A stretch of 52,665 nucleotides of DNA from a virus (taxonomy: Duplodnaviria; Heunggongvirae; Uroviricota; Caudoviricetes), in the IMG/VR virus record IMGVR_UViG_3300036856_000037; one strand, given 5' to 3'. Both the position numbers and the translations under genes were made by a program. Shown piece by piece: positions 6,730 through 43,675 of this stretch. The notes under the pieces are model-generated. The model was not told the DNA's origin and made no database searches. It worked only from the letters and a program-made list of their open reading frames with translations. Each line of letters starts with the position of its first letter. The first letter of the stretch is position 1.

Positions 6730-6801
6730 CTAGGAAAGTCGGAGAGACGAACTTGATCGCAGGAGCATCTGCAATCGTAATAGTCGCTGGTCAGCACGCA
6801 T
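6730..6801 (-). CDS. leaderless leader peptide of the Ser/Leu tRNA operon (MRADQRLLRLQMLLRSSSSLRLS)
   Basis: ATG 7 nt after TATAGT; contains all six Leu codons and five Ser codons. Confidence 0.75.
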   Translation of the reverse strand: MRADQRLLRLQMLLRSSSSLRLS

Positions 6802-6808
6802 GACAAGT

Positions 6809-6836
6809 ACTATAGCGCAACCCGTCGCGACTTCAA
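6809..6836 (-). promoter_or_regulatory. SigA-type promoter of the Ser/Leu tRNA operon
   Basis: TTGAAG-N16-TATAGT. Confidence 0.65.
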
Positions 6837-14181: not shown

Positions 14182-14316
14182 AAAAGGTGAACACAGTAGT
14201 AATACCCCTACCGCACGGCGTGTCGGGTCTGCTACAGTTGCGGCATGTTTGCGCGACCCGCCGCCCCACGACCGCCACGATGGCGTCGATATACTCGGGT
14301 TTGACGCGCGCAAAAA

Positions 14317-14355
14317 ATGAGGCGCTCTCCCCTCGGGTATATCTCCGGGGTGTAG
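14317..14355 (+). CDS. candidate leader peptide of the Pro/Trp/Tyr tRNA cluster (MRRSPLGYISGV)
   Basis: M-R start; CCC and TAT codons; ends inside tRNA-Pro; no SD, no Trp codon. Confidence 0.35.
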   Translation: MRRSPLGYISGV

Positions 14356-19371: not shown

Positions 19372-19641
19372 CTAGCCGCCAACGGGCGCTGGCGCGCAGA
19401 TGATCTTCTCCGCGTCAGGGTCGAACGTCCTGATCTGCTCACCCTTGGTGCCATCCCGCTTGATGCGGTAAGCGAAGTACTTCTTGATCTTTGTCGCTTC
19501 CTCGAAAGCGCGCCGCGCGATGCCGACCTCGTCGGGGTTGTTCCTGTTCCAGGAAATCTGCGTGTCTCCCGTGCTGTCCATGATGTGCAGCGTGGCGACT
19601 TCGGTGTCTTCCTGGGTGGGTTGTTCTGCGACGGACGTCAT
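19372..19641 (-). CDS. small protein ending in di-glycine (ubiquitin/ThiS-like candidate)
   Basis: 89 aa ending ...APAPVGG-stop. Confidence 0.7.
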   Translation of the reverse strand: MTSVAEQPTQEDTEVATLHIMDSTGDTQISWNRNNPDEVGIARRAFEEATKIKKYFAYRIKRDGTKGEQIRTFDPDAEKIICAPAPVGG

Positions 19642-19743
19642 TGATTCCCCTTCTTCTCAAGCGGCTTGCTGCCGCATCTCGGGGGAGCGGCGACGTACAC
19701 TTCGTAGCCTACGAATCAGTTTTTGTCGCCGGTCCCTACTGCC

Positions 19744-19765
19744 AGTATATGCCAGCGGCCTACCG
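19744..19765 (-). promoter_or_regulatory. partial dyad promoter of the leftward operon
   Basis: CGGTAG-GCCGC-TGGCA-TATACT. Confidence 0.5.
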
Positions 19766-19869
19766 TTACAAAGGCCACGCGCCTGGCTTGTTCATAGGGT
19801 GTTTTCCCTGGTCAAAAACGTCTAGCGCCCGACGCCGGTACCGCGTATAGTGTTGCCAGTACTGCAAAT

Positions 19870-20651: not shown

Positions 20652-20733
20652 CAAGCTGGGTTGGGCAGTTCCTAGGCGTGTTCAAAGCTGTCACGGTGCG
20701 CAGGTTTCCAATGCCGTTTCCTGCGCATCACCT

Positions 20734-20806
20734 GGGGCCGTAGCTCAGTTGGTAGAGCGCCGCACTTGCACTGCGGAGGTCGCGAGTTCAACTCTCGCCT
20801 GCTCCA
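20734..20806 (+). tRNA. tRNA-Ala(TGC)
   Basis: G3:U70; CCGCA-CTTGCAC-TGCGG. Confidence 0.92.
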
Positions 20807-21291: not shown

Positions 21292-21357
21292 CGTGTCAGG
21301 GACCAGTTCGCGCCTGGTTAAAAGCGCGGGGAAGACAAGAATGGTGAGGTCAGCAAC

Positions 21358-21387
21358 ATGACGTTCGTTTTCCCACCGTCCTGGTAG
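21358..21387 (+). CDS. candidate leader peptide MTFVFPPSW before tRNA-Val(GAC)
   Basis: GAGGT SD; GTT at codon 4. Confidence 0.5.
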   Translation: MTFVFPPSW

Positions 21388-21450
21388 CTCAGTTGGTAGA
21401 GCGCTTGCCCGACATGCAAGAGGCCGGAGGTTCGAAACCTCCTCGGGACA
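21378..21450 (+). tRNA. tRNA-Val(GAC), C33
   Basis: CTTGC-CCGACAT-GCAAG. Confidence 0.9.
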
Positions 21451-21591
21451 CGTCGGTCGATCAACGACATGCTCGTCGGCAAGGACTTTCTCGGTCGACC
21501 GACTTAAGCACGTCCTCCCAGAGCTGAGCAGAGTCAGACTGGCCCGAAAGGGGCGGCGGGGTTCCGCCCCACTACAACGAAAGGAACGACC

Positions 21592-21618
21592 ATGCGAAAG
21601 CAGATCACGCCCCGATAA
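21592..21618 (+). CDS. leader peptide MRKQITPR before tRNA-Lys(CTT)
   Basis: AAGGA SD; AAG at codon 3; 5' region homologous to the 43613 leader. Confidence 0.65.
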   Translation: MRKQITPR

Positions 21619-21621
21619 CAC

Positions 21622-21694
21622 GCGCCCGTAGCTGAGCCAGGTTTAGCTCCGTCCTCTTAAGTCGGAGACGCGGGTTCGAATCCCGCCGGGCGTA
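21622..21694 (+). tRNA. tRNA-Lys(CTT)
   Basis: CCGTC-CTCTTAA-GTCGG. Confidence 0.88.
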
Positions 21695-24001: not shown

Positions 24002-24520
24002 ATGAGCGATGCGACCTTTGGCAGCACCTTCAACGGCGGCCAGGGCATTCACGAATTGACCGGTGAGCCCTATCTGGCGGTCACCATTCACTCCTCCATC
24101 ATCGGTTGGCGCCACCGCAAAGGCGTGATGCAGAAAATCCTGTGGAAAAAGCACGTTGACGCCCGCGGGCGCACGTCCTACCGCGCGCGCAAGTGGCCCA
24201 ACATGCCCTTCACCCTGCTGACCCGGGCGCGGTATGCCCTGCGTCCCCAGCTGTGTGCCGTGGGCTTTCACCACCGCGCCGACATCACCGAGGTGGACGG
24301 CAGTGTGTGGCGCGCGGGCTGCCTGTCGTGCGACACGCTGGTCAGGCCACATAAGAAGCTTCCGGCCAACCCCAGCAGGGTGGCAGAACTACAGGCGCTC
24401 AATGCCAAGGCGGACAAGATGAGCGCCGCCATCGACGCCTACCTGGCGGGGGAGGGTCCGTGTCCGCACTGCGCCTACCCCGATGGGAAACATGAGCCCG
24501 GCTGCTGGGAGGCGGAGTAG
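24002..24520 (+). CDS. hypothetical protein
   Basis: 172 aa ORF; CLSC, CPHC. Confidence 0.65.
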   Translation: MSDATFGSTFNGGQGIHELTGEPYLAVTIHSSIIGWRHRKGVMQKILWKKHVDARGRTSYRARKWPNMPFTLLTRARYALRPQLCAVGFHHRADITEVDGSVWRAGCLSCDTLVRPHKKLPANPSRVAELQALNAKADKMSAAIDAYLAGEGPCPHCAYPDGKHEPGCWEAE

Positions 24521-25031
24521 CCCGCGTCTGCGCAGCACGCGCGACATACGTCAGCAACGTCGCCCTCGGCGTCACAGTTGCTGGAATCACCTCATCGTTG
24601 CGCCGTTGTGGCCGAAGCACGGTGTCAACCTCGGCACCATGTTGCGGACGTGTGATGCCGCGGGCGCGTGCTTGGCCGTCCCGAAACTCCCCTGGGTCAA
24701 GGAAGCATTGGCCAAGGGAAATACATTGCGCACTCCGTCGTGTGTGCACTGGATCTATGCCGATGTAGGCGACTGGCTGAAGCGTCAGCGGGAGGGAGGC
24801 TCTCTGGTGGTGGGGGTGGAATTGACGGAGGAGTCAGTGCGACTGGCCGACCTGCCGATGGCACGTCAGCGGACAGTCATCGTGCTGGGGAATGAGCGCA
24901 CCGGCATCCCCCAAGAAGGCCTGGAGCACCTGGACGTAGCGGTGGAGATTCCGATGATTGGCAGCGGTGACAGCCTTAATGTCGTCATCGCCGGGTCTCT
25001 GGTCCTCTACAAGCTAGCGGGCCTGGTCTAG
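24483..25031 (+). CDS. SpoU/TrmH-family (SPOUT) RNA 2'-O-methyltransferase
   Basis: NLGTMLRTCDA, VLGNERTGI, VEIPMIGSGDSLNV motifs; start uncertain. Confidence 0.9.
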   Translation: MGNMSPAAGRRSSPRLRSTRDIRQQRRPRRHSCWNHLIVAPLWPKHGVNLGTMLRTCDAAGACLAVPKLPWVKEALAKGNTLRTPSCVHWIYADVGDWLKRQREGGSLVVGVELTEESVRLADLPMARQRTVIVLGNERTGIPQEGLEHLDVAVEIPMIGSGDSLNVVIAGSLVLYKLAGLV

Positions 25032-25841: not shown

Positions 25842-26140
25842 TCGGTTATGACATCGACGGCGTGCTGACCCGTGCCGACCAGTTCTGGGATCTACGGGGC
25901 GCGGTGGTGATCTCTGGTCGCACCTTTGCTGAATACGACGACACCGCCAAACGCGCCGCCCAAATGTGCCCGGTGTACATCCGCGGCGCCGGTACGTTCG
26001 GCGACCAGAAACACGCGGGAGAGTTCAAAGCCGAGACGATCAACCGGCTCGGTGTCACCCGCTTCTATGAGGACGACCCGGTGCAGATCGCCATCATCCG
26101 CGCATGTTGTCCCGACTGTGAAGTAGTCCAGGTGAAATGA
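25838..26140 (+). CDS. HAD-superfamily phosphatase (PNKP-phosphatase-like)
   Basis: DIDGVL motif I, ISGR motif II, K, EDD motif IV. Confidence 0.8.
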   Translation: MIGYDIDGVLTRADQFWDLRGAVVISGRTFAEYDDTAKRAAQMCPVYIRGAGTFGDQKHAGEFKAETINRLGVTRFYEDDPVQIAIIRACCPDCEVVQVK

Positions 26141-26306
26141 AGGGACGAGCGCATGAGTTCGAGTGACCCCGTCCCGTGTGTGGTGGGGGATGCGGCCTTC
26201 GCTGGCATGGTCCACCAGGCCAGCCTCTGTGGCGCCACATCATCCATCGGCAACGACGAGGTCCTTGCCGCCTACGCCGCCATCCCAGGCTATGAGGTAT
26301 CGCTCA

Positions 26307-26591
26307 ATGGAGGATGAGGTGGCCATCTCCTGCCTGGCCCAGGACATGGCAGAGGCACTGGGGGAGCGGTACGACGCCGTGACCATGCCGGGTTGGAAGC
26401 AGGCGGCGCAGAACCTTTTGTCGTTCGGCTGGCGGCACCAGGCGTGGCTGGATGAGCGCATGGACCCGATTGCCAAAGACTGGTTCGCCTTCGGGCGCCT
26501 TGAACTACGACGTGACGGCACGCTGCGCTACCTGGGTAGGGAGCGGACGTACTCCGTCGCCTTTGGTTCAGCTACCCGGGCCAACTGGTAG
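26307..26591 (+). CDS. hypothetical protein
   Basis: ORF; start uncertain. Confidence 0.5.
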   Translation: MEDEVAISCLAQDMAEALGERYDAVTMPGWKQAAQNLLSFGWRHQAWLDERMDPIAKDWFAFGRLELRRDGTLRYLGRERTYSVAFGSATRANW

Positions 26592-26834
26592 CTAGGTGAC
26601 GGTGATGGCCGACGACGTGGCGGTGATGCTGGCCTTCTTTTCCGCGCCCGTGCCCACTACGTCGACGGTCTGAATCCAGACTCGCAACTGCTGCAGTGTG
26701 CAGGGGACCGTCAAAGTTGGCGCGGTGGAGGGGATGTGTGCACTCATGTTCTCTATGATGCAATACGGCTGGCAAAAAACCCCTACCGAGGGTGGCGTGG
26801 CGCTTGCTAGTATTGGCAAATCAGCGAAGCGTAG

Positions 26835-26906
26835 GCATTCGTAGCCAAGTGGTATGGCGTCACCTTGCCAAGGTGGAGATCGCGGGTTCGACCCCCGCCG
26901 GATGCT
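26835..26906 (+). tRNA. tRNA-Gly(GCC)
   Basis: TCACC-TTGCCAA-GGTGG. Confidence 0.92.
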
Positions 26907-26942
26907 CAAGTCGGCCCGGAGACTTAAAACTCCCGGGAGCAT

Positions 26943-27017
26943 GGTCCTATGGAGCAGTTTGGAGTGCTCGCCACCCTGTCACGGTGGAGGTCACGGGTTC
27001 AAGTCCCGTTAGGATCG
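26943..27017 (+). tRNA. tRNA-Asp(GTC)
   Basis: CCACC-CTGTCAC-GGTGG; G73. Confidence 0.92.
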
Positions 27018-27018
27018 C

Positions 27019-27069
27019 ATGTTGATTCAGGGCATACGACGAATTAGGTCGCGGCGACAAAGCCGCTGA
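27019..27069 (+). CDS. leader peptide MLIQGIRRIRSRRQSR of the Ile/Arg/Gln tRNA cluster
   Basis: 11 of 15 non-start codons are Ile, Arg or Gln. Confidence 0.65.
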   Translation: MLIQGIRRIRSRRQSR

Positions 27070-27082
27070 CCTGCGTTTTCAT

Positions 27083-27156
27083 GCCCGTCTAGCTCATTTG
27101 GTTAGAGCGTCGAACTGATAATTCGAAGGCACCAGGTTCAAATCCTGGGTCGGGCA
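27083..27156 (+). tRNA. tRNA-Ile(GAT)
   Basis: TCGAA-CTGATAA-TTCGA. Confidence 0.92.
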
Positions 27157-27167
27157 CGCATGACCAA

Positions 27168-27241
27168 GCCTCTGTAGCTCAGCGGAGAAGAGCGTCCGAC
27201 TACGGATCGGAAGGCCGCGGGTTCGAATCCTGCTAGGGGCA
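27168..27241 (+). tRNA. tRNA-Arg(ACG)
   Basis: TCCGA-CTACGGA-TCGGA. Confidence 0.92.
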
Positions 27242-27284
27242 CGTGACTGGTAAGCGAATAGCGAGCGCGCACGACTACTTGCGC

Positions 27285-27357
27285 GCTCCTGGGGCTCACT
27301 GGTACGGGCGACGTTCTTATAAAACGGAGATAGCGGGTTCAATCCCCGCCAGGAGTA
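27285..27357 (+). tRNA. tRNA-Ile(TAT)
   Basis: ACGTT-CTTATAA-AACGG; A73. Confidence 0.85.
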
Positions 27358-27362
27358 CAGAG

Positions 27363-27503
27363 ATGAAGAAGACGATGCTGGTGCACCGCCATTGCGGTGC
27401 TCGCGTCATGGGTGGGAGCTACGGCACCTATTGCCCACGATGCCGTAAGTGGCTGGTCGGCCCCGCGGTCGACCAGGTTCGAAGGCGACGGTCTAGGACA
27501 TGA
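27363..27503 (+). CDS. small Zn-ribbon protein, in frame with an upstream GTG at 27243
   Basis: HRHCG...YCPRC. Confidence 0.55.
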   Translation: MKKTMLVHRHCGARVMGGSYGTYCPRCRKWLVGPAVDQVRRRRSRT

Positions 27504-27529
27504 GCGACAACCTGATGTCGCTATGCCTG

Positions 27530-27603
27530 GCCGTCGTAGCTGAAAAGGAACAGCGCCAGACTTCTAATCTGGGAAGATGCGGGTTCGAGTCCTGTCGGCG
27601 GCA
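27530..27603 (+). tRNA. tRNA-Arg(TCT)
   Basis: CCAGA-CTTCTAA-TCTGG. Confidence 0.9.
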
Positions 27604-27607
27604 CTGA

Positions 27608-27680
27608 TGAGGTGTGGGGTAAACGGCAGCCCGCCGGATTTTGGTTCCGGACAATGAAGGTTCGAGTCCTTCCGCCTCAG
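27608..27680 (+). tRNA. tRNA-Gln(TTG)
   Basis: CCGGA-TTTTGGT-TCCGG; U1:A72, G73. Confidence 0.9.
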
Positions 27681-27737
27681 CGAGGTGGCGGTCAATGCTG
27701 TGCGCGGACGCAATGTCCAGTCCGGCCGTCGCCCCAT

Positions 27738-27807
27738 GCCTTCGCCGGCGGACCCGGCGTCGAGCTTCCGAAGCTCGGTGGCGGCAGTTCAACTCTGCCC
27801 GGGGGCA
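27738..27807 (+). tRNA. tRNA-Arg(CCG), short D arm
   Basis: CGAGC-TTCCGAA-GCTCG. Confidence 0.78.
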
Positions 27808-27835
27808 CGGACTGTATCGCTGCGATACGCAATGT

Positions 27836-27907
27836 GCCGCCGTGGCTGAACGGAAAAGCACCCGCTTCCTAAGCGGACTTACGTGGGTTCGAATCCCTCC
27901 GGTGGCG
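27836..27907 (+). tRNA. tRNA-Arg(CCT)
   Basis: CCCGC-TTCCTAA-GCGGA. Confidence 0.88.
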
Positions 27908-27912
27908 CTGTC

Positions 27913-27938
27913 GAGGTGCCAGCGCGCTGGCGTATAAT
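27913..27938 (+). promoter_or_regulatory. dyad promoter, copy 3
   Basis: GAGGTGCCAG-CGCGC-TGGCG-TATAAT. Confidence 0.75.
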
Positions 27939-27955
27939 TACCTTGGGTAGGTGGC

Positions 27956-29203
27956 ATGGGGCCGCCGGAGAAAGGTAGTTGGTGGGTGACCGCACCGGAC
28001 TTGCAAGAACAGCTGGAGTACCTAATCCGTACCGGCTCGCCGTACGACTTCGCGCCGGATATCGGGTCCAACATCCTGGACCAGGTCGACGCCTTCCTGG
28101 CGCGCTACGTCGCCTATCCAGATGAGGGTGCGCGGCGGGCACACACGCTGTGGATTGCGCACTGCTGGTTCATGGACGTGTGGCACACGACGCCACGGTT
28201 GCTCTTTGTGTCACCGGAGCCCGGCAGTGGCAAGACGCGCGCACTGACCGTCACTGAGCAACTGGTCCCCCACCCTGACTTCGTCGGTGACCTGACGCCA
28301 GCGGCGCTGTACCACGCGGTGGATGAGACGATGAAAATGGACGGCGCGCGACCCACCGTCCTCTACGACGAGCTGGACACGGTGTTCGGCCCAGAGGCGG
28401 CGGGACGCAACGCGCAGATGCGGCGCCTTATCGACATCGGCCACGCTAAGAATGGCACCGTCAGTCGTTACATCGGCGCAGGCAAGGGCAAGCGCCACAT
28501 CGTCAAGTTTCCGGTGTATGCCGCCATGGCGCTCGCCGGCAAGATGCACGTTGAGGAAGTACCCGCCACCATCAGGTCGCGCAGTGTGGTGGTGCGCATG
28601 CAACGACGCGCGCCGGGTGAGGAGATTGAGCGTTGGCAACGACGCACCGCCCCGGCGGACGCCGCGCCGTTGCGGGACCTCCTGCAATTCTGGGCCGAGT
28701 TTGTCCATGAGCACGCGCACGAGTTTTCCCCAGAACTACCGGACGAGATTGGTGACCGGGACGCCGACGTCTGGGAGCCGCTACTGGCGGTGGCGGACCT
28801 GGCGGGTGGTCACTGGCCCAGGACGGCCCGTGTAGCTGCTGTAGCTGCTGTAGCTGCTGCTGGTGTTAACACCACACCCAGCGCAGGCGTCCAGCTTCTT
28901 TGGGACATCAAAGCCGTTTTCGATGAGCTCGCCGTGGACGTGATCTTTACGGCCAAGCTGCTCATGATGCTGCAGACCCCAGAAGAATCGCCATGGCGTC
29001 GACTTGACGCTATGAAAATGGCCCGCATCTTGCACAGCTACAGGATTGAGACCAATCGAAACCAGCGCATTGGAGAGGTTGTCCGTAGGGGCTACCGCAG
29101 GGAGTACTTCACGGACGCATGGCTGCGTTACCCACCACCCGCGCCAGCTACACCAGCTACACCAGCTACACCAGCTACAGATTTGGATGAGTACTTTGAT
29201 TGA
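27956..29203 (+). CDS. DUF3631-family P-loop primase/helicase-associated replication protein
   Basis: LWIAH, SPEPGSGKT (Walker A), VLYDELD (Walker B), DRDADVWEPLLAVADLAGGHWP, RGYRR.F..AW.RY. Confidence 0.85.
   Translation: MGPPEKGSWWVTAPDLQEQLEYLIRTGSPYDFAPDIGSNILDQVDAFLARYVAYPDEGARRAHTLWIAHCWFMDVWHTTPRLLFVSPEPGSGKTRALTVTEQLVPHPDFVGDLTPAALYHAVDETMKMDGARPTVLYDELDTVFGPEAAGRNAQMRRLIDIGHAKNGTVSRYIGAGKGKRHIVKFPVYAAMALAGKMHVEEVPATIRSRSVVVRMQRRAPGEEIERWQRRTAPADAAPLRDLLQFWAEFVHEHAHEFSPELPDEIGDRDADVWEPLLAVADLAGGHWPRTARVAAVAAVAAAGVNTTPSAGVQLLWDIKAVFDELAVDVIFTAKLLMMLQTPEESPWRRLDAMKMARILHSYRIETNRNQRIGEVVRRGYRREYFTDAWLRYPPPAPATPATPATPATDLDEYFD
28831..28857 (+). repeat. 3 x 9-bp tandem repeat TGTAGCTGC
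   Basis: direct reading. Confidence 0.9.
29144..29179 (+). repeat. 4 x 9-bp tandem repeat CCAGCTACA (near reverse complement of the 28831 array)
   Basis: direct reading; 8/9 match to the reverse complement. Confidence 0.9.
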
Positions 29204-29885
29204 CGGTTTGCCTATTGAGGTTGAAACTGGCTTGCTCGGAATCTCTGGTGTCTACGTCTACACGATGCCACTGTGCCTCGCCTGTCCTATGAATGAGCAG
29301 GGCGACATCTTACTCAAGGTCGGTCACTCCGAAGTCTGCTGTTGGACTCGGTTCAGGAATCAACGGTGTGTGACAGAGGCTCCCCAAGCGATGGTGCTGC
29401 AGCGCATTTACAACACGCCCCAAGGACTTACTGCGCGCAAGCTAGAGGAAAAGTTTCACAACTTGCTCGACGCGGCGTTTGAACGCAGCGACGGTGGCAG
29501 AGAGTGGTGGATAACCAATCTTGAGTTCCTCGACACCACTGCGGACGCACTCGGTGCACCTGTCAAGTTCACTGTCGAGATGGCCCTGGGTACGCTTCTG
29601 CGGCCTACGCCAAGCCGAGGGATTCAGCTCCTGTGGGATATCAAGTCCATCTTCGACGTAAGAGATGTCGAGGTTATTTTCACGAAGGACCTACTAGCTG
29701 ACCTAGAAGTAGGCCGACTACGAACTACGCCCGCATTGGTGGGTCGTACGCTACGCAGCTACGGCATCAGGCCGGTAATGCTCCGCATCGGCCGGGGTGT
29801 TGCTAGGGGTTACCGCCGCGAGCACTTTATCCCTGCATGGTCTCAATATCCTCCCGTTTATAGCGCAGGCGCCGATGAAGCATAG
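29187..29885 (+). CDS. T5orf172/GIY-YIG-like nuclease fused to a DUF3631-type C-terminal domain
   Basis: GVYVYT..LKVGHS..RF..LEEKFH..GGREWW, then GIQLLWDIKSIFD...RGYRREHF..AW..YP. Confidence 0.7.
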   Translation: MSTLIDGLPIEVETGLLGISGVYVYTMPLCLACPMNEQGDILLKVGHSEVCCWTRFRNQRCVTEAPQAMVLQRIYNTPQGLTARKLEEKFHNLLDAAFERSDGGREWWITNLEFLDTTADALGAPVKFTVEMALGTLLRPTPSRGIQLLWDIKSIFDVRDVEVIFTKDLLADLEVGRLRTTPALVGRTLRSYGIRPVMLRIGRGVARGYRREHFIPAWSQYPPVYSAGADEA

Positions 29886-43538: not shown

Positions 43539-43612
43539 CCTGCTACCGCACGCGGGTGGCGGCTGGTACTGTCATTGCCGTTACGTACCAGTCACTACGA
43601 GAGGAGCCGACC

Positions 43613-43675
43613 ATGCGACAGCATCGTAAACACGAGCCCGAACGCATGCAGAATAACGTCGGCGCTCGTAGCTGA
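43613..43675 (+). CDS. leader peptide MRQHRKHEPERMQNNVGARS of the Lys/Glu/Asn/Gln/Met tRNA cluster
   Basis: GAGGAG SD; AAA, GAG, GAA, AAT/AAC and CAG codons; pairs with the tRNA-Lys 5' strand. Confidence 0.7.
   Translation: MRQHRKHEPERMQNNVGARS

Follow-up and report, generated by a model that had tools for sequence, protein, structure and literature searches.

We analysed a 52,665-nucleotide (nt) stretch of viral DNA (IMG/VR record IMGVR_UViG_3300036856_000037; hereafter the window), which is part of an actinophage-like genome with 61% GC and carries 37 transfer RNA (tRNA) genes arranged in six clusters (ARAGORN). In a large protein collection, the contig to which it belongs measures 116,665 bp. 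In the 64-nt spacer between tRNA-Asp(GTC) and tRNA-Ile(GAT) (27083-27156) lies a 16-codon open reading frame (ORF, 27019-27069), written largely in codons read by the seven tRNAs encoded behind it. The statistics suggest that this ORF may well be a ribosome-sensing leader adjusting the output of these tRNAs. By the same token, this actinophage might well carry four or five such mini-ORFs, each in the codons of its own tRNA block. If this is true, the phage gauges its decoding capacity codon by codon and tunes its own tRNA supply accordingly, i.e. the ribosome exerts a feedback on tRNA genes.

The ORF (codons ATG TTG ATT CAG GGC ATA CGA CGA ATT AGG TCG CGG CGA CAA AGC CGC TGA) stops 13 nt 5' of tRNA-Ile. 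An earlier reading of the sequence alone had remarked that 11 of its 15 non-start codons specify Ile, Arg or Gln and that AGA is missing. This is borne out: ATT occurs twice, CGA three times, and ATA, CGC, CGG, AGG, CAG and CAA once each. When codons are scored by anticodon with standard wobble, a cognate codon is present for 7/7 downstream tRNAs, and AGG is readable by UCU via wobble. Codons for these three amino acids have a background frequency of 0.18 over all frames. A content of 11/15 tops 339 small ORFs, and also 697, and is reached at two loci only in the six frames of the 52.7 kb. Shuffles of the spacer that preserve dinucleotides give P=2e-4 (20,000 shuffles), and relative to random stop-free frames the joint probability of 7/7 coverage and 11/15 cognate codons is 2.5e-5. 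For its tRNA set the ORF ranks first among the 746 small ORFs of the window (0.73 vs 0.38). The enrichment is also found in the non-Arg codons (5/9 cognate, P=1.5e-4) and in the eight codons outside the hairpin described below (6/8 cognate, P=7.6e-4). Hence, the signal does not come from Arg or from the CG-rich hairpin alone. Codon loading exceeds chance.

This ORF has siblings in the window. We scanned without prior choice of locus all ORFs of at least eight codons whose stop lies at most 45 nt from the start of a tRNA, and scored them against the downstream tRNAs of the same cluster. Four of the 36 candidates have P<0.01, and with disjoint (swapped) tRNA sets the fraction is 1.2%. The matrix of leaders by tRNA sets is diagonal: among the 746 small ORFs, each taken for its own set, the ORF under study and the sibling that we call A rank first, F ranks second and B third. 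The chance that four ORFs of the window reach these joint P values has an upper bound of ~3e-7, given the 36 candidates. Sibling A stops 4 nt 5' of a block made up of tRNA-Ser(GCT) and then four tRNA-Leu genes, and covers 5/5 of these tRNAs. A borderline fifth leader covers 5/6 of the tRNAs behind it (Ala, Met, Phe, Val, Val, Lys), and a short homologue of F is weak alone (P=0.08). The coordinates of these ORFs are given in Table 1.

We also scored 13 loci of other phages, with 250 tRNAs and 125 candidate ORFs (Tonenili, Myrna, ScoobyDoobyDoo, GMA2, Sixama, Trina, Byblos, Nanosmite, a Microbacterium phage, StAugustine and three IMG/VR contigs). In the mycobacteriophage StAugustine, the spacer between the Val and Thr tRNAs contains an ORF that precedes the block Thr(TGT), Ile(GAT), Arg(ACG), Tyr(GTA), Arg(CCG) and Arg(TCT). 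Cognate codons are present in it for 6/6 of these tRNAs and make up 12 of its 19 codons (P=2.5e-5), which places it at the top of 351 small ORFs. The window and StAugustine have no proteins in common. The Ile-Arg tRNA pair of StAugustine is the best DNA match to the pair of the window, and the start of its leader has in common with two leaders of the window, both before tRNA-Lys genes, the 10-mer GACCATGCGA, which is absent elsewhere in the window and in the 46 kb of StAugustine examined.

The idea of a codon-loaded leader, as proposed by the sequence-only reading, passes every statistical control that was devised and is strengthened by the siblings and by StAugustine. Its weak Shine-Dalgarno (SD) motif, a chance-level pairing with tRNA-Ile and a hairpin that simple terminator rules do not recognise speak against it, as do the following observations. 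The weakest point of the leader reading is the translation start. ATG 27019 is the sole start possible in frame because the closest in-frame upstream stop ends at 27012. The proposed SD, AGGA, does belong to the 3' strand of the acceptor stem of tRNA-Asp and is the sole SD-like motif, but it has only four bases, stands at a spacing of 4 nt and is hidden in that stem by base-pairing. The ATG is found 2 nt past the discriminator of tRNA-Asp, the gene of which does not encode CCA, and after 3' processing the RNA would begin with C-AUG, which is no true leaderless end. Nor is the ORF leaderless by other signs: it is placed inside a transcript, 3' of a tRNA, and no -10 box stands at the correct distance from the ATG. 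A promoter within tRNA-Asp producing a leaderless ORF was considered, since TAGGAT fits TANNNT, and was ruled out on spacing (3 nt from the ATG). Better starts are found in A and B, with a -10 box at leaderless spacing, and in F and StAugustine, with a strong SD.

Three of the seven tRNA groups of the window (Cys-to-Lys, Thr x3 and Gly/Asp) have no leader ORF when searched to 330 nt upstream, and 12 of the 13 loci of other phages show no signal, P<0.01 being obtained in StAugustine alone. Among these, Sixama is uninformative because its array is one long cluster, making the downstream sets too broad. Finally, there is no close relative of this phage in any of the collections searched, whether by megablast and blastn against INPHARED, by two patterns anchored on tRNAs and the leader itself as an exact pattern in IMG/VR, by one anchored pattern each in JGI metagenomes and GTDB genomes, or in a set of 5.8 billion proteins. 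Contigs from Logan (run SRR11836412) are identical to the window and therefore add no variation.

Positional counterparts of the spacer can nevertheless be found in cluster C mycobacteriophages (e.g. Bxz1, Alice, Tonenili and Myrna), which have in common with the window the gene order Gly(GCC), Asp(GTC), spacer, Ile, Arg(ACG). In these phages, the spacer leads to Ile2(CAT). Their Asp-to-Ile2 spacers have 57-86 nt, are nearly all filled by a stable hairpin and have an ATG right behind tRNA-Asp, as in the window. Yet, the sequences are unrelated, and the cluster C frames (MQKDRRLPG.., which runs into the tRNA, MQKRFGDRT.., and MQKRFGDRTRLTPRAPGVM followed by a stop) are not enriched for cognate codons. 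In ScoobyDoobyDoo the spacer is a mere 3 nt (AAT). The sequence-only reading had taken absence of the ORF from orthologous spacers as a refutation; in these positional counterparts, the only ones available, the Ile/Arg/Gln peptide is indeed absent. This weakens the leader reading without refuting it because these phages are distant. In Bxz1, Alice, Sauce and Gizmo, the Asp-to-Ile2 spacer consists of 50 nt that form an almost perfect palindrome, and in Tonenili and Myrna of a different structured insert; in cluster C it looks like an inserted palindromic element.

The window spacer contains a stable hairpin, which indeed spans the stop of the ORF, with TGA in its 3' arm and with a lower stem formed by GACG (27038-27041) and CGTT (27074-27077). 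Its folding free energy of -19.4 kcal/mol (z=-3.4) is equalled in 1 of 200 shuffles, so that its stability exceeds chance, and the fold of the whole spacer has z=-2.7. However, 8 of the 24 inter-tRNA spacers of the window are structured alike (z from -2.4 to -5.9), and the hairpin alone is thus unremarkable. Structured spacers are a general trait of the tRNA arrays of this phage (e.g. 6202-6287, 20244-20298, 20808-20945, 23034-23200, 27359-27529 and 43736-43789). The hairpin with its tail GCGUUUUC, where UUUU is the only run and is offset by 3 nt, is not called by a simple consensus scan for terminators. The complementarity between GGGCAT and ATGCCC noticed earlier is present in the sequence, and the minimum free energy structure of the spacer plus tRNA-Ile contains this pairing as well as one of 27020-27026 with the 3' acceptor strand of the tRNA. 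As a duplex (-10.8 kcal/mol), GGGCAT/ATGCCC is matched by 25-28% of the controls, which is not above chance. There is no antiterminator helix above controls either, the only other candidate being the 4-bp (base pair) helix CGAC/GUCG. In addition, a stop located in the 3' arm lets any translating ribosome open the hairpin, so that a codon-specific logic is not obvious. Within 26000-28500, Rfam at E up to 1 returns tRNA matches only, with no T-box or other cis-regulatory RNA.

These results bring forward the main rival explanation, which we regard as possible though doubtful: the spacer would be an ordinary non-coding structured one, whose hairpin has a part in processing the pre-tRNA, in protecting 3' ends or in weakly terminating transcription behind Gly-Asp, and the ORF and its codons would be a coincidence favoured by a CG-rich hairpin and an AT-rich flank. 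It accounts for the frequency of similarly structured spacers in the window (z at or below -2.4) and for the cluster C counterparts, which are hairpin-filled, variable, without conserved peptide and in one phage missing. It is also in line with the fact that 5 of the 11 cognate codons lie in the hairpin, and with the lack of a free SD, of an Rfam element and of relatives showing purifying selection. Yet, local composition fails to explain the codons, as indicated by the shuffles; the non-hairpin half of the ORF is itself rich in cognate codons, and all seven anticodons are covered. Moreover, the coincidence would have to recur at three further blocks of the window, with the very small bound given above, and once more in StAugustine, while the controls with swapped sets and with other phages are clean.

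The spacer might instead be a decayed remnant or a palindromic element inserted between tRNA-Asp and the Ile tRNA, as in cluster C, and have no present function. Relative to ScoobyDoobyDoo, spacers of the Bxz1 type do resemble a perfect palindrome inserted between ..CGCAAT and GCC.., the spacers range in length from 3 to 86 nt, and in an alignment the window spacer has a short GATTC-GGG similarity to that of Tonenili. We find this improbable, as the hairpin of the window and the cluster C palindromes have unrelated sequences and the codon match is left unexplained. In particular, a decayed tRNA was considered and dropped, as Rfam, at E up to 1, detects no tRNA-like remnant within the spacer. 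About as improbable is an Arg-rich basic micro-peptide, e.g. binding RNA or tRNA, co-expressed with the tRNAs and mattering as a peptide and not through its decoding: the mini-ORFs are all Arg-rich (21-42% vs a background of 12%, even with no Arg tRNA behind), the neighbouring Zn-ribbon protein likewise ends in RRRRSRT and the tyrT operon of E. coli has a small Arg-rich 'protamine-like' ORF, but the peptides are dissimilar beyond MR, their codons are varied instead of optimised, and their non-Arg residues follow the downstream tRNA set each time, which no peptide function predicts.

How might a leader of this kind work? If Ile, Arg and Gln codons were poorly decoded, e.g. because of a high codon demand by the phage or of host anticodon nucleases depleting these tRNAs, ribosomes would slow down on the leader. 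A ribosome held on the run ATA-CGA-CGA-ATT-AGG would, given its presumed footprint, mask the 5' arm of the hairpin, and could also mask the leader segments able to pair with both acceptor strands of tRNA-Ile. With the inhibitory structure blocked, the seven tRNAs would be transcribed or matured faster. Under fast decoding, or if the leader were untranslated, the structure would form and output would drop. What the sequence shows is the ORF, its match to all seven tRNAs, the stable hairpin and the siblings; we infer from it that the ORF is translated, that ribosomes stall on it, the direction of the control and that the hairpin acts via termination or via processing and folding. Control of termination during transcription fits poorly with a start that probably needs prior processing of tRNA-Asp and with a stop inside the hairpin. 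The specific step of hairpin occlusion is therefore rather unlikely, and processing or folding may be the route instead. One can go further and propose, tentatively, a circuit for tRNA supply on demand, in which leaders act as codon samplers and a stalled ribosome switches on exactly its own block. In contrast to the terminator-based units of phiCbK-like phages (see below), the actinophage version would mainly release the first tRNA's acceptor strands, or else a spacer hairpin, and thereby act on the folding and processing of the pre-tRNA. The unit at 27019-27069 would then be internal to its cluster, with Gly and Asp constitutive and Ile, Arg and Gln gated.

Leader peptides are classical attenuators of amino-acid operons, either with one main amino acid (trpL, hisL, leuL, pheL) or multivalent (thrL, ilvL). 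The ORF resembles them in being tiny, directly 5' of the genes that it would control and packed with codons reporting on supply, and in having a GC-rich hairpin that overlaps its end and is followed by a U run. Its codons sample several amino acids together, a trait of ilvL and thrL. It differs from them in that the genes are tRNAs and not enzymes, in having a single hairpin with no convincing antiterminator, a short offset U-tract and no free SD, and in its position inside a tRNA array right after a tRNA. T-boxes also are cis-acting RNAs sensing the status of tRNAs. Their ligand is uncharged tRNA itself, they work without translation and they govern genes for synthetases and amino-acid metabolism; as noted above, Rfam returns no T-box here.

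The closest precedent is found in mycobacteria, which belong to the probable host group, the Actinobacteria. There, ribosomes stalled on leaderless Cys-rich small ORFs (sORFs) relieve an inhibitory RNA duplex (the 'ribulon', bioRxiv 10.1101/834739). When VapC4 cleaves tRNA-Cys, ribosomes stall at Cys codons (PMC13096801), and this cleavage has been linked as a trigger to the attenuators of the Cys sORFs (Barth 2021, as cited in PMC10264068 and PMC13096801). The analogy lies in the tiny ORF rich in sensor codons, in a stalled ribosome that would block an inhibitory duplex and in the depletion of a tRNA by a nuclease, which is a known trigger in mycobacteria; siblings A and B are moreover leaderless in that style. 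The differences are that in mycobacteria the duplex occludes a protein gene's ribosome-binding site, whereas a stalled ribosome would act here on a terminator-like hairpin or on a tRNA's acceptor strands, and that the ORF under study is not leaderless.

Caulobacter phage phiCbK provides another parallel, for which we found no published description. It has two units in which an ORF covers every tRNA behind it, as in the window (7/7 here, 10/10 and 8/8 in phiCbK), and in both units a rho-independent terminator annotated in GenBank stands between the ORF and the tRNAs. In contrast with these strong annotated intrinsic terminators, the window has a terminator-like hairpin overlapping the stop; phages and hosts are unrelated. 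The trn operon of Anabaena, a tRNA array, is induced under translational stress (PMC8421152, PMC10272220) and, like the array proposed here, is accessory and responds to translation trouble. Unlike it, the Anabaena array is controlled by a protein repressor, TrcR (PMC10272220), and PMC8421152 describes no leader ORF.

For 50 years it has been a matter of debate why phages have tRNA arrays and what use they make of them. Codon compensation and evasion of host defences that cleave tRNAs are the leading proposals (PMC10264068). We found no paper describing leader ORFs that control tRNA genes in full-text searches, and leader-peptide control applied to such genes could well be new. The logic of attenuation, so far tied to the metabolism of amino acids, would then reach the decoding apparatus itself. 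Annotators would also have grounds to seek mini-ORFs, which gene callers ignore, in tRNA clusters.

Table 1. Position of the leader ORF, of its candidate counterparts and of associated features. Positions refer to the window unless another genome is named.
Feature	Position	Strand	Description
Leader ORF	27019..27069	+	16 codons, MLIQGIRRIRSRRQSR then stop; ATG 27019, TGA 27067-27069
SD-like AGGA	27012..27015	+	4 nt from ATG, within acceptor stem of tRNA-Asp
GGGCAT	27030..27035	+	Complement of ATGCCC 27081-27086 (tRNA-Ile -2 to +4)
Putative sensor-codon run	27034..27048	+	ATA CGA CGA ATT AGG, mid-ORF; from sequence
Stop-spanning hairpin	27046..27072	+	AGGTCGCGGC / GACAAA / GCCGC-T-GACCT; arms 27046-27055 and 27062-27072
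TTTT run	27076..27079	+	3 nt past hairpin; short, terminator-like
tRNA-Asp(GTC)	26943..27017	+	Acceptor 3' strand 27010-27016, discriminator G27017; ARAGORN, Rfam 57 bits
tRNA block 3' of leader ORF	27083..27908	+	Seven tRNAs, split solely by the Zn-ribbon ORF; starts: Ile(GAT) 27083, Arg(ACG) 27168, Ile(TAT) 27285, Arg(TCT) 27530, Gln(TTG) 27608, Arg(CCG) 27733, Arg(CCT) 27836
Zn-ribbon-like ORF	27363-27503	+	46 amino acids, between tRNA-Ile(TAT) and tRNA-Arg(TCT); HCG..CPRC, C-terminus RRRRSRT
Sibling A	6730..6801	-	MRADQRLLRLQMLLRSSSSLRLS then stop; TTGAAG-N16-TATAGT-N7-ATG, leaderless-like; region 6730-6836
Sibling B	14245..14304	+	MFARPAAPRPPRWRRYTRV then stop; TACAGT-N6-ATG; 5' of Pro/Trp/Tyr tRNAs, 3/3 covered
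Sibling F	43613..43675	+	MRQHRKHEPERMQNNVGARS then stop; SD GAGAGGAG; 5' of Lys, Glu, Glu, Asn, Gln, Met, 6/6 covered
Short homologue of F	21592..21618	+	MRKQITPR then stop; GACCATGCGA start module, AAG codon, 5' of tRNA-Lys(CTT)
Borderline fifth leader	20678-20743	+	MFKAVTVRRFPMPFPAHHLGP; Ala(GGC)-to-Ala(TGC) spacer, P 0.014
StAugustine leader	Region 1310-1415 of examined stretch (PV251870.1)		MRTRIIARPLVAPRRRYSRR then stop; unannotated; start GAGGAAGGAG-TGACC-ATG
phiCbK gp083	Region 19540-19792 of examined stretch (JX100813)		Covers 10/10 tRNAs behind, 23/44 codons cognate, P ~1e-4
phiCbK unannotated ORF	Region 21341-21631 of examined stretch		32 codons, ..YRQFVRQIQVVRNIR..; covers 8/8 tRNAs of next block

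The siblings have features of their own. Sibling A makes use of all six codons for Leu and of five for Ser. The last codons of B are spanned by a 12-bp hairpin (GATATACTCGGG / CTCGGGTATATC) that ends 2 nt before tRNA-Pro (14245-14345). Homologous modules of the form CACTAC..GA.AGGA.CGACCATGCGA.AGCA are found at 43590-43675 and 21570-21621, both on the + strand, 5' of both tRNA-Lys genes, the longer one encoding F. The motif AGGA-N1-3-GACCATGCGA does not serve as a marker of tRNA leaders, since it stands directly before a tRNA in 0 of the first 120 IMG/VR matches listed. In StAugustine, a long hairpin (z=-3.2) encloses both the SD and the start. Sibling F pairs with the 5' end of tRNA-Lys (-16.6 kcal/mol, P ~0.01). 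Such a pairing with acceptor strands was considered as a common feature of the leaders and rejected, because it is significant in F alone and ordinary in A, B, Kctt, StAugustine and the ORF under study. A terminator shared across leaders was not found either.

The Cys-.. and Gly/Asp clusters seem to begin without leader ORF. The -10-like boxes TATAGT/TAGTAT (19845-19869 and 26805-26834) are found 12-20 nt 5' of the first tRNA of these two clusters. The tRNA-Ile(GAT) gene behind the leader (27083-27157) is 71% identical to the tRNA-Ile2(CAT) of cluster C and 60-62% identical to the tRNA-Ile(GAT) of the same phages. Its acceptor stem has a U6:U67 mismatch, and AUA is read in this phage by a separate tRNA-Ile(UAU). 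The Zn-ribbon-like protein (P0003) has no homologue beyond itself in the set of 5.8 billion proteins, where P0002 also matches itself alone, and the SD of its ORF, AGGAG, is supplied by the 3' end of a tRNA. The DUF3631 protein P0001 does have relatives, without tRNAs, and those in IMG/VR do not adjoin tRNAs. Two genes with a DUF3631 domain (27956-29885) stand just 3' of the tRNA cluster, and a methyltransferase of the SpoU family (24483-25031) is encoded just 5' of it.

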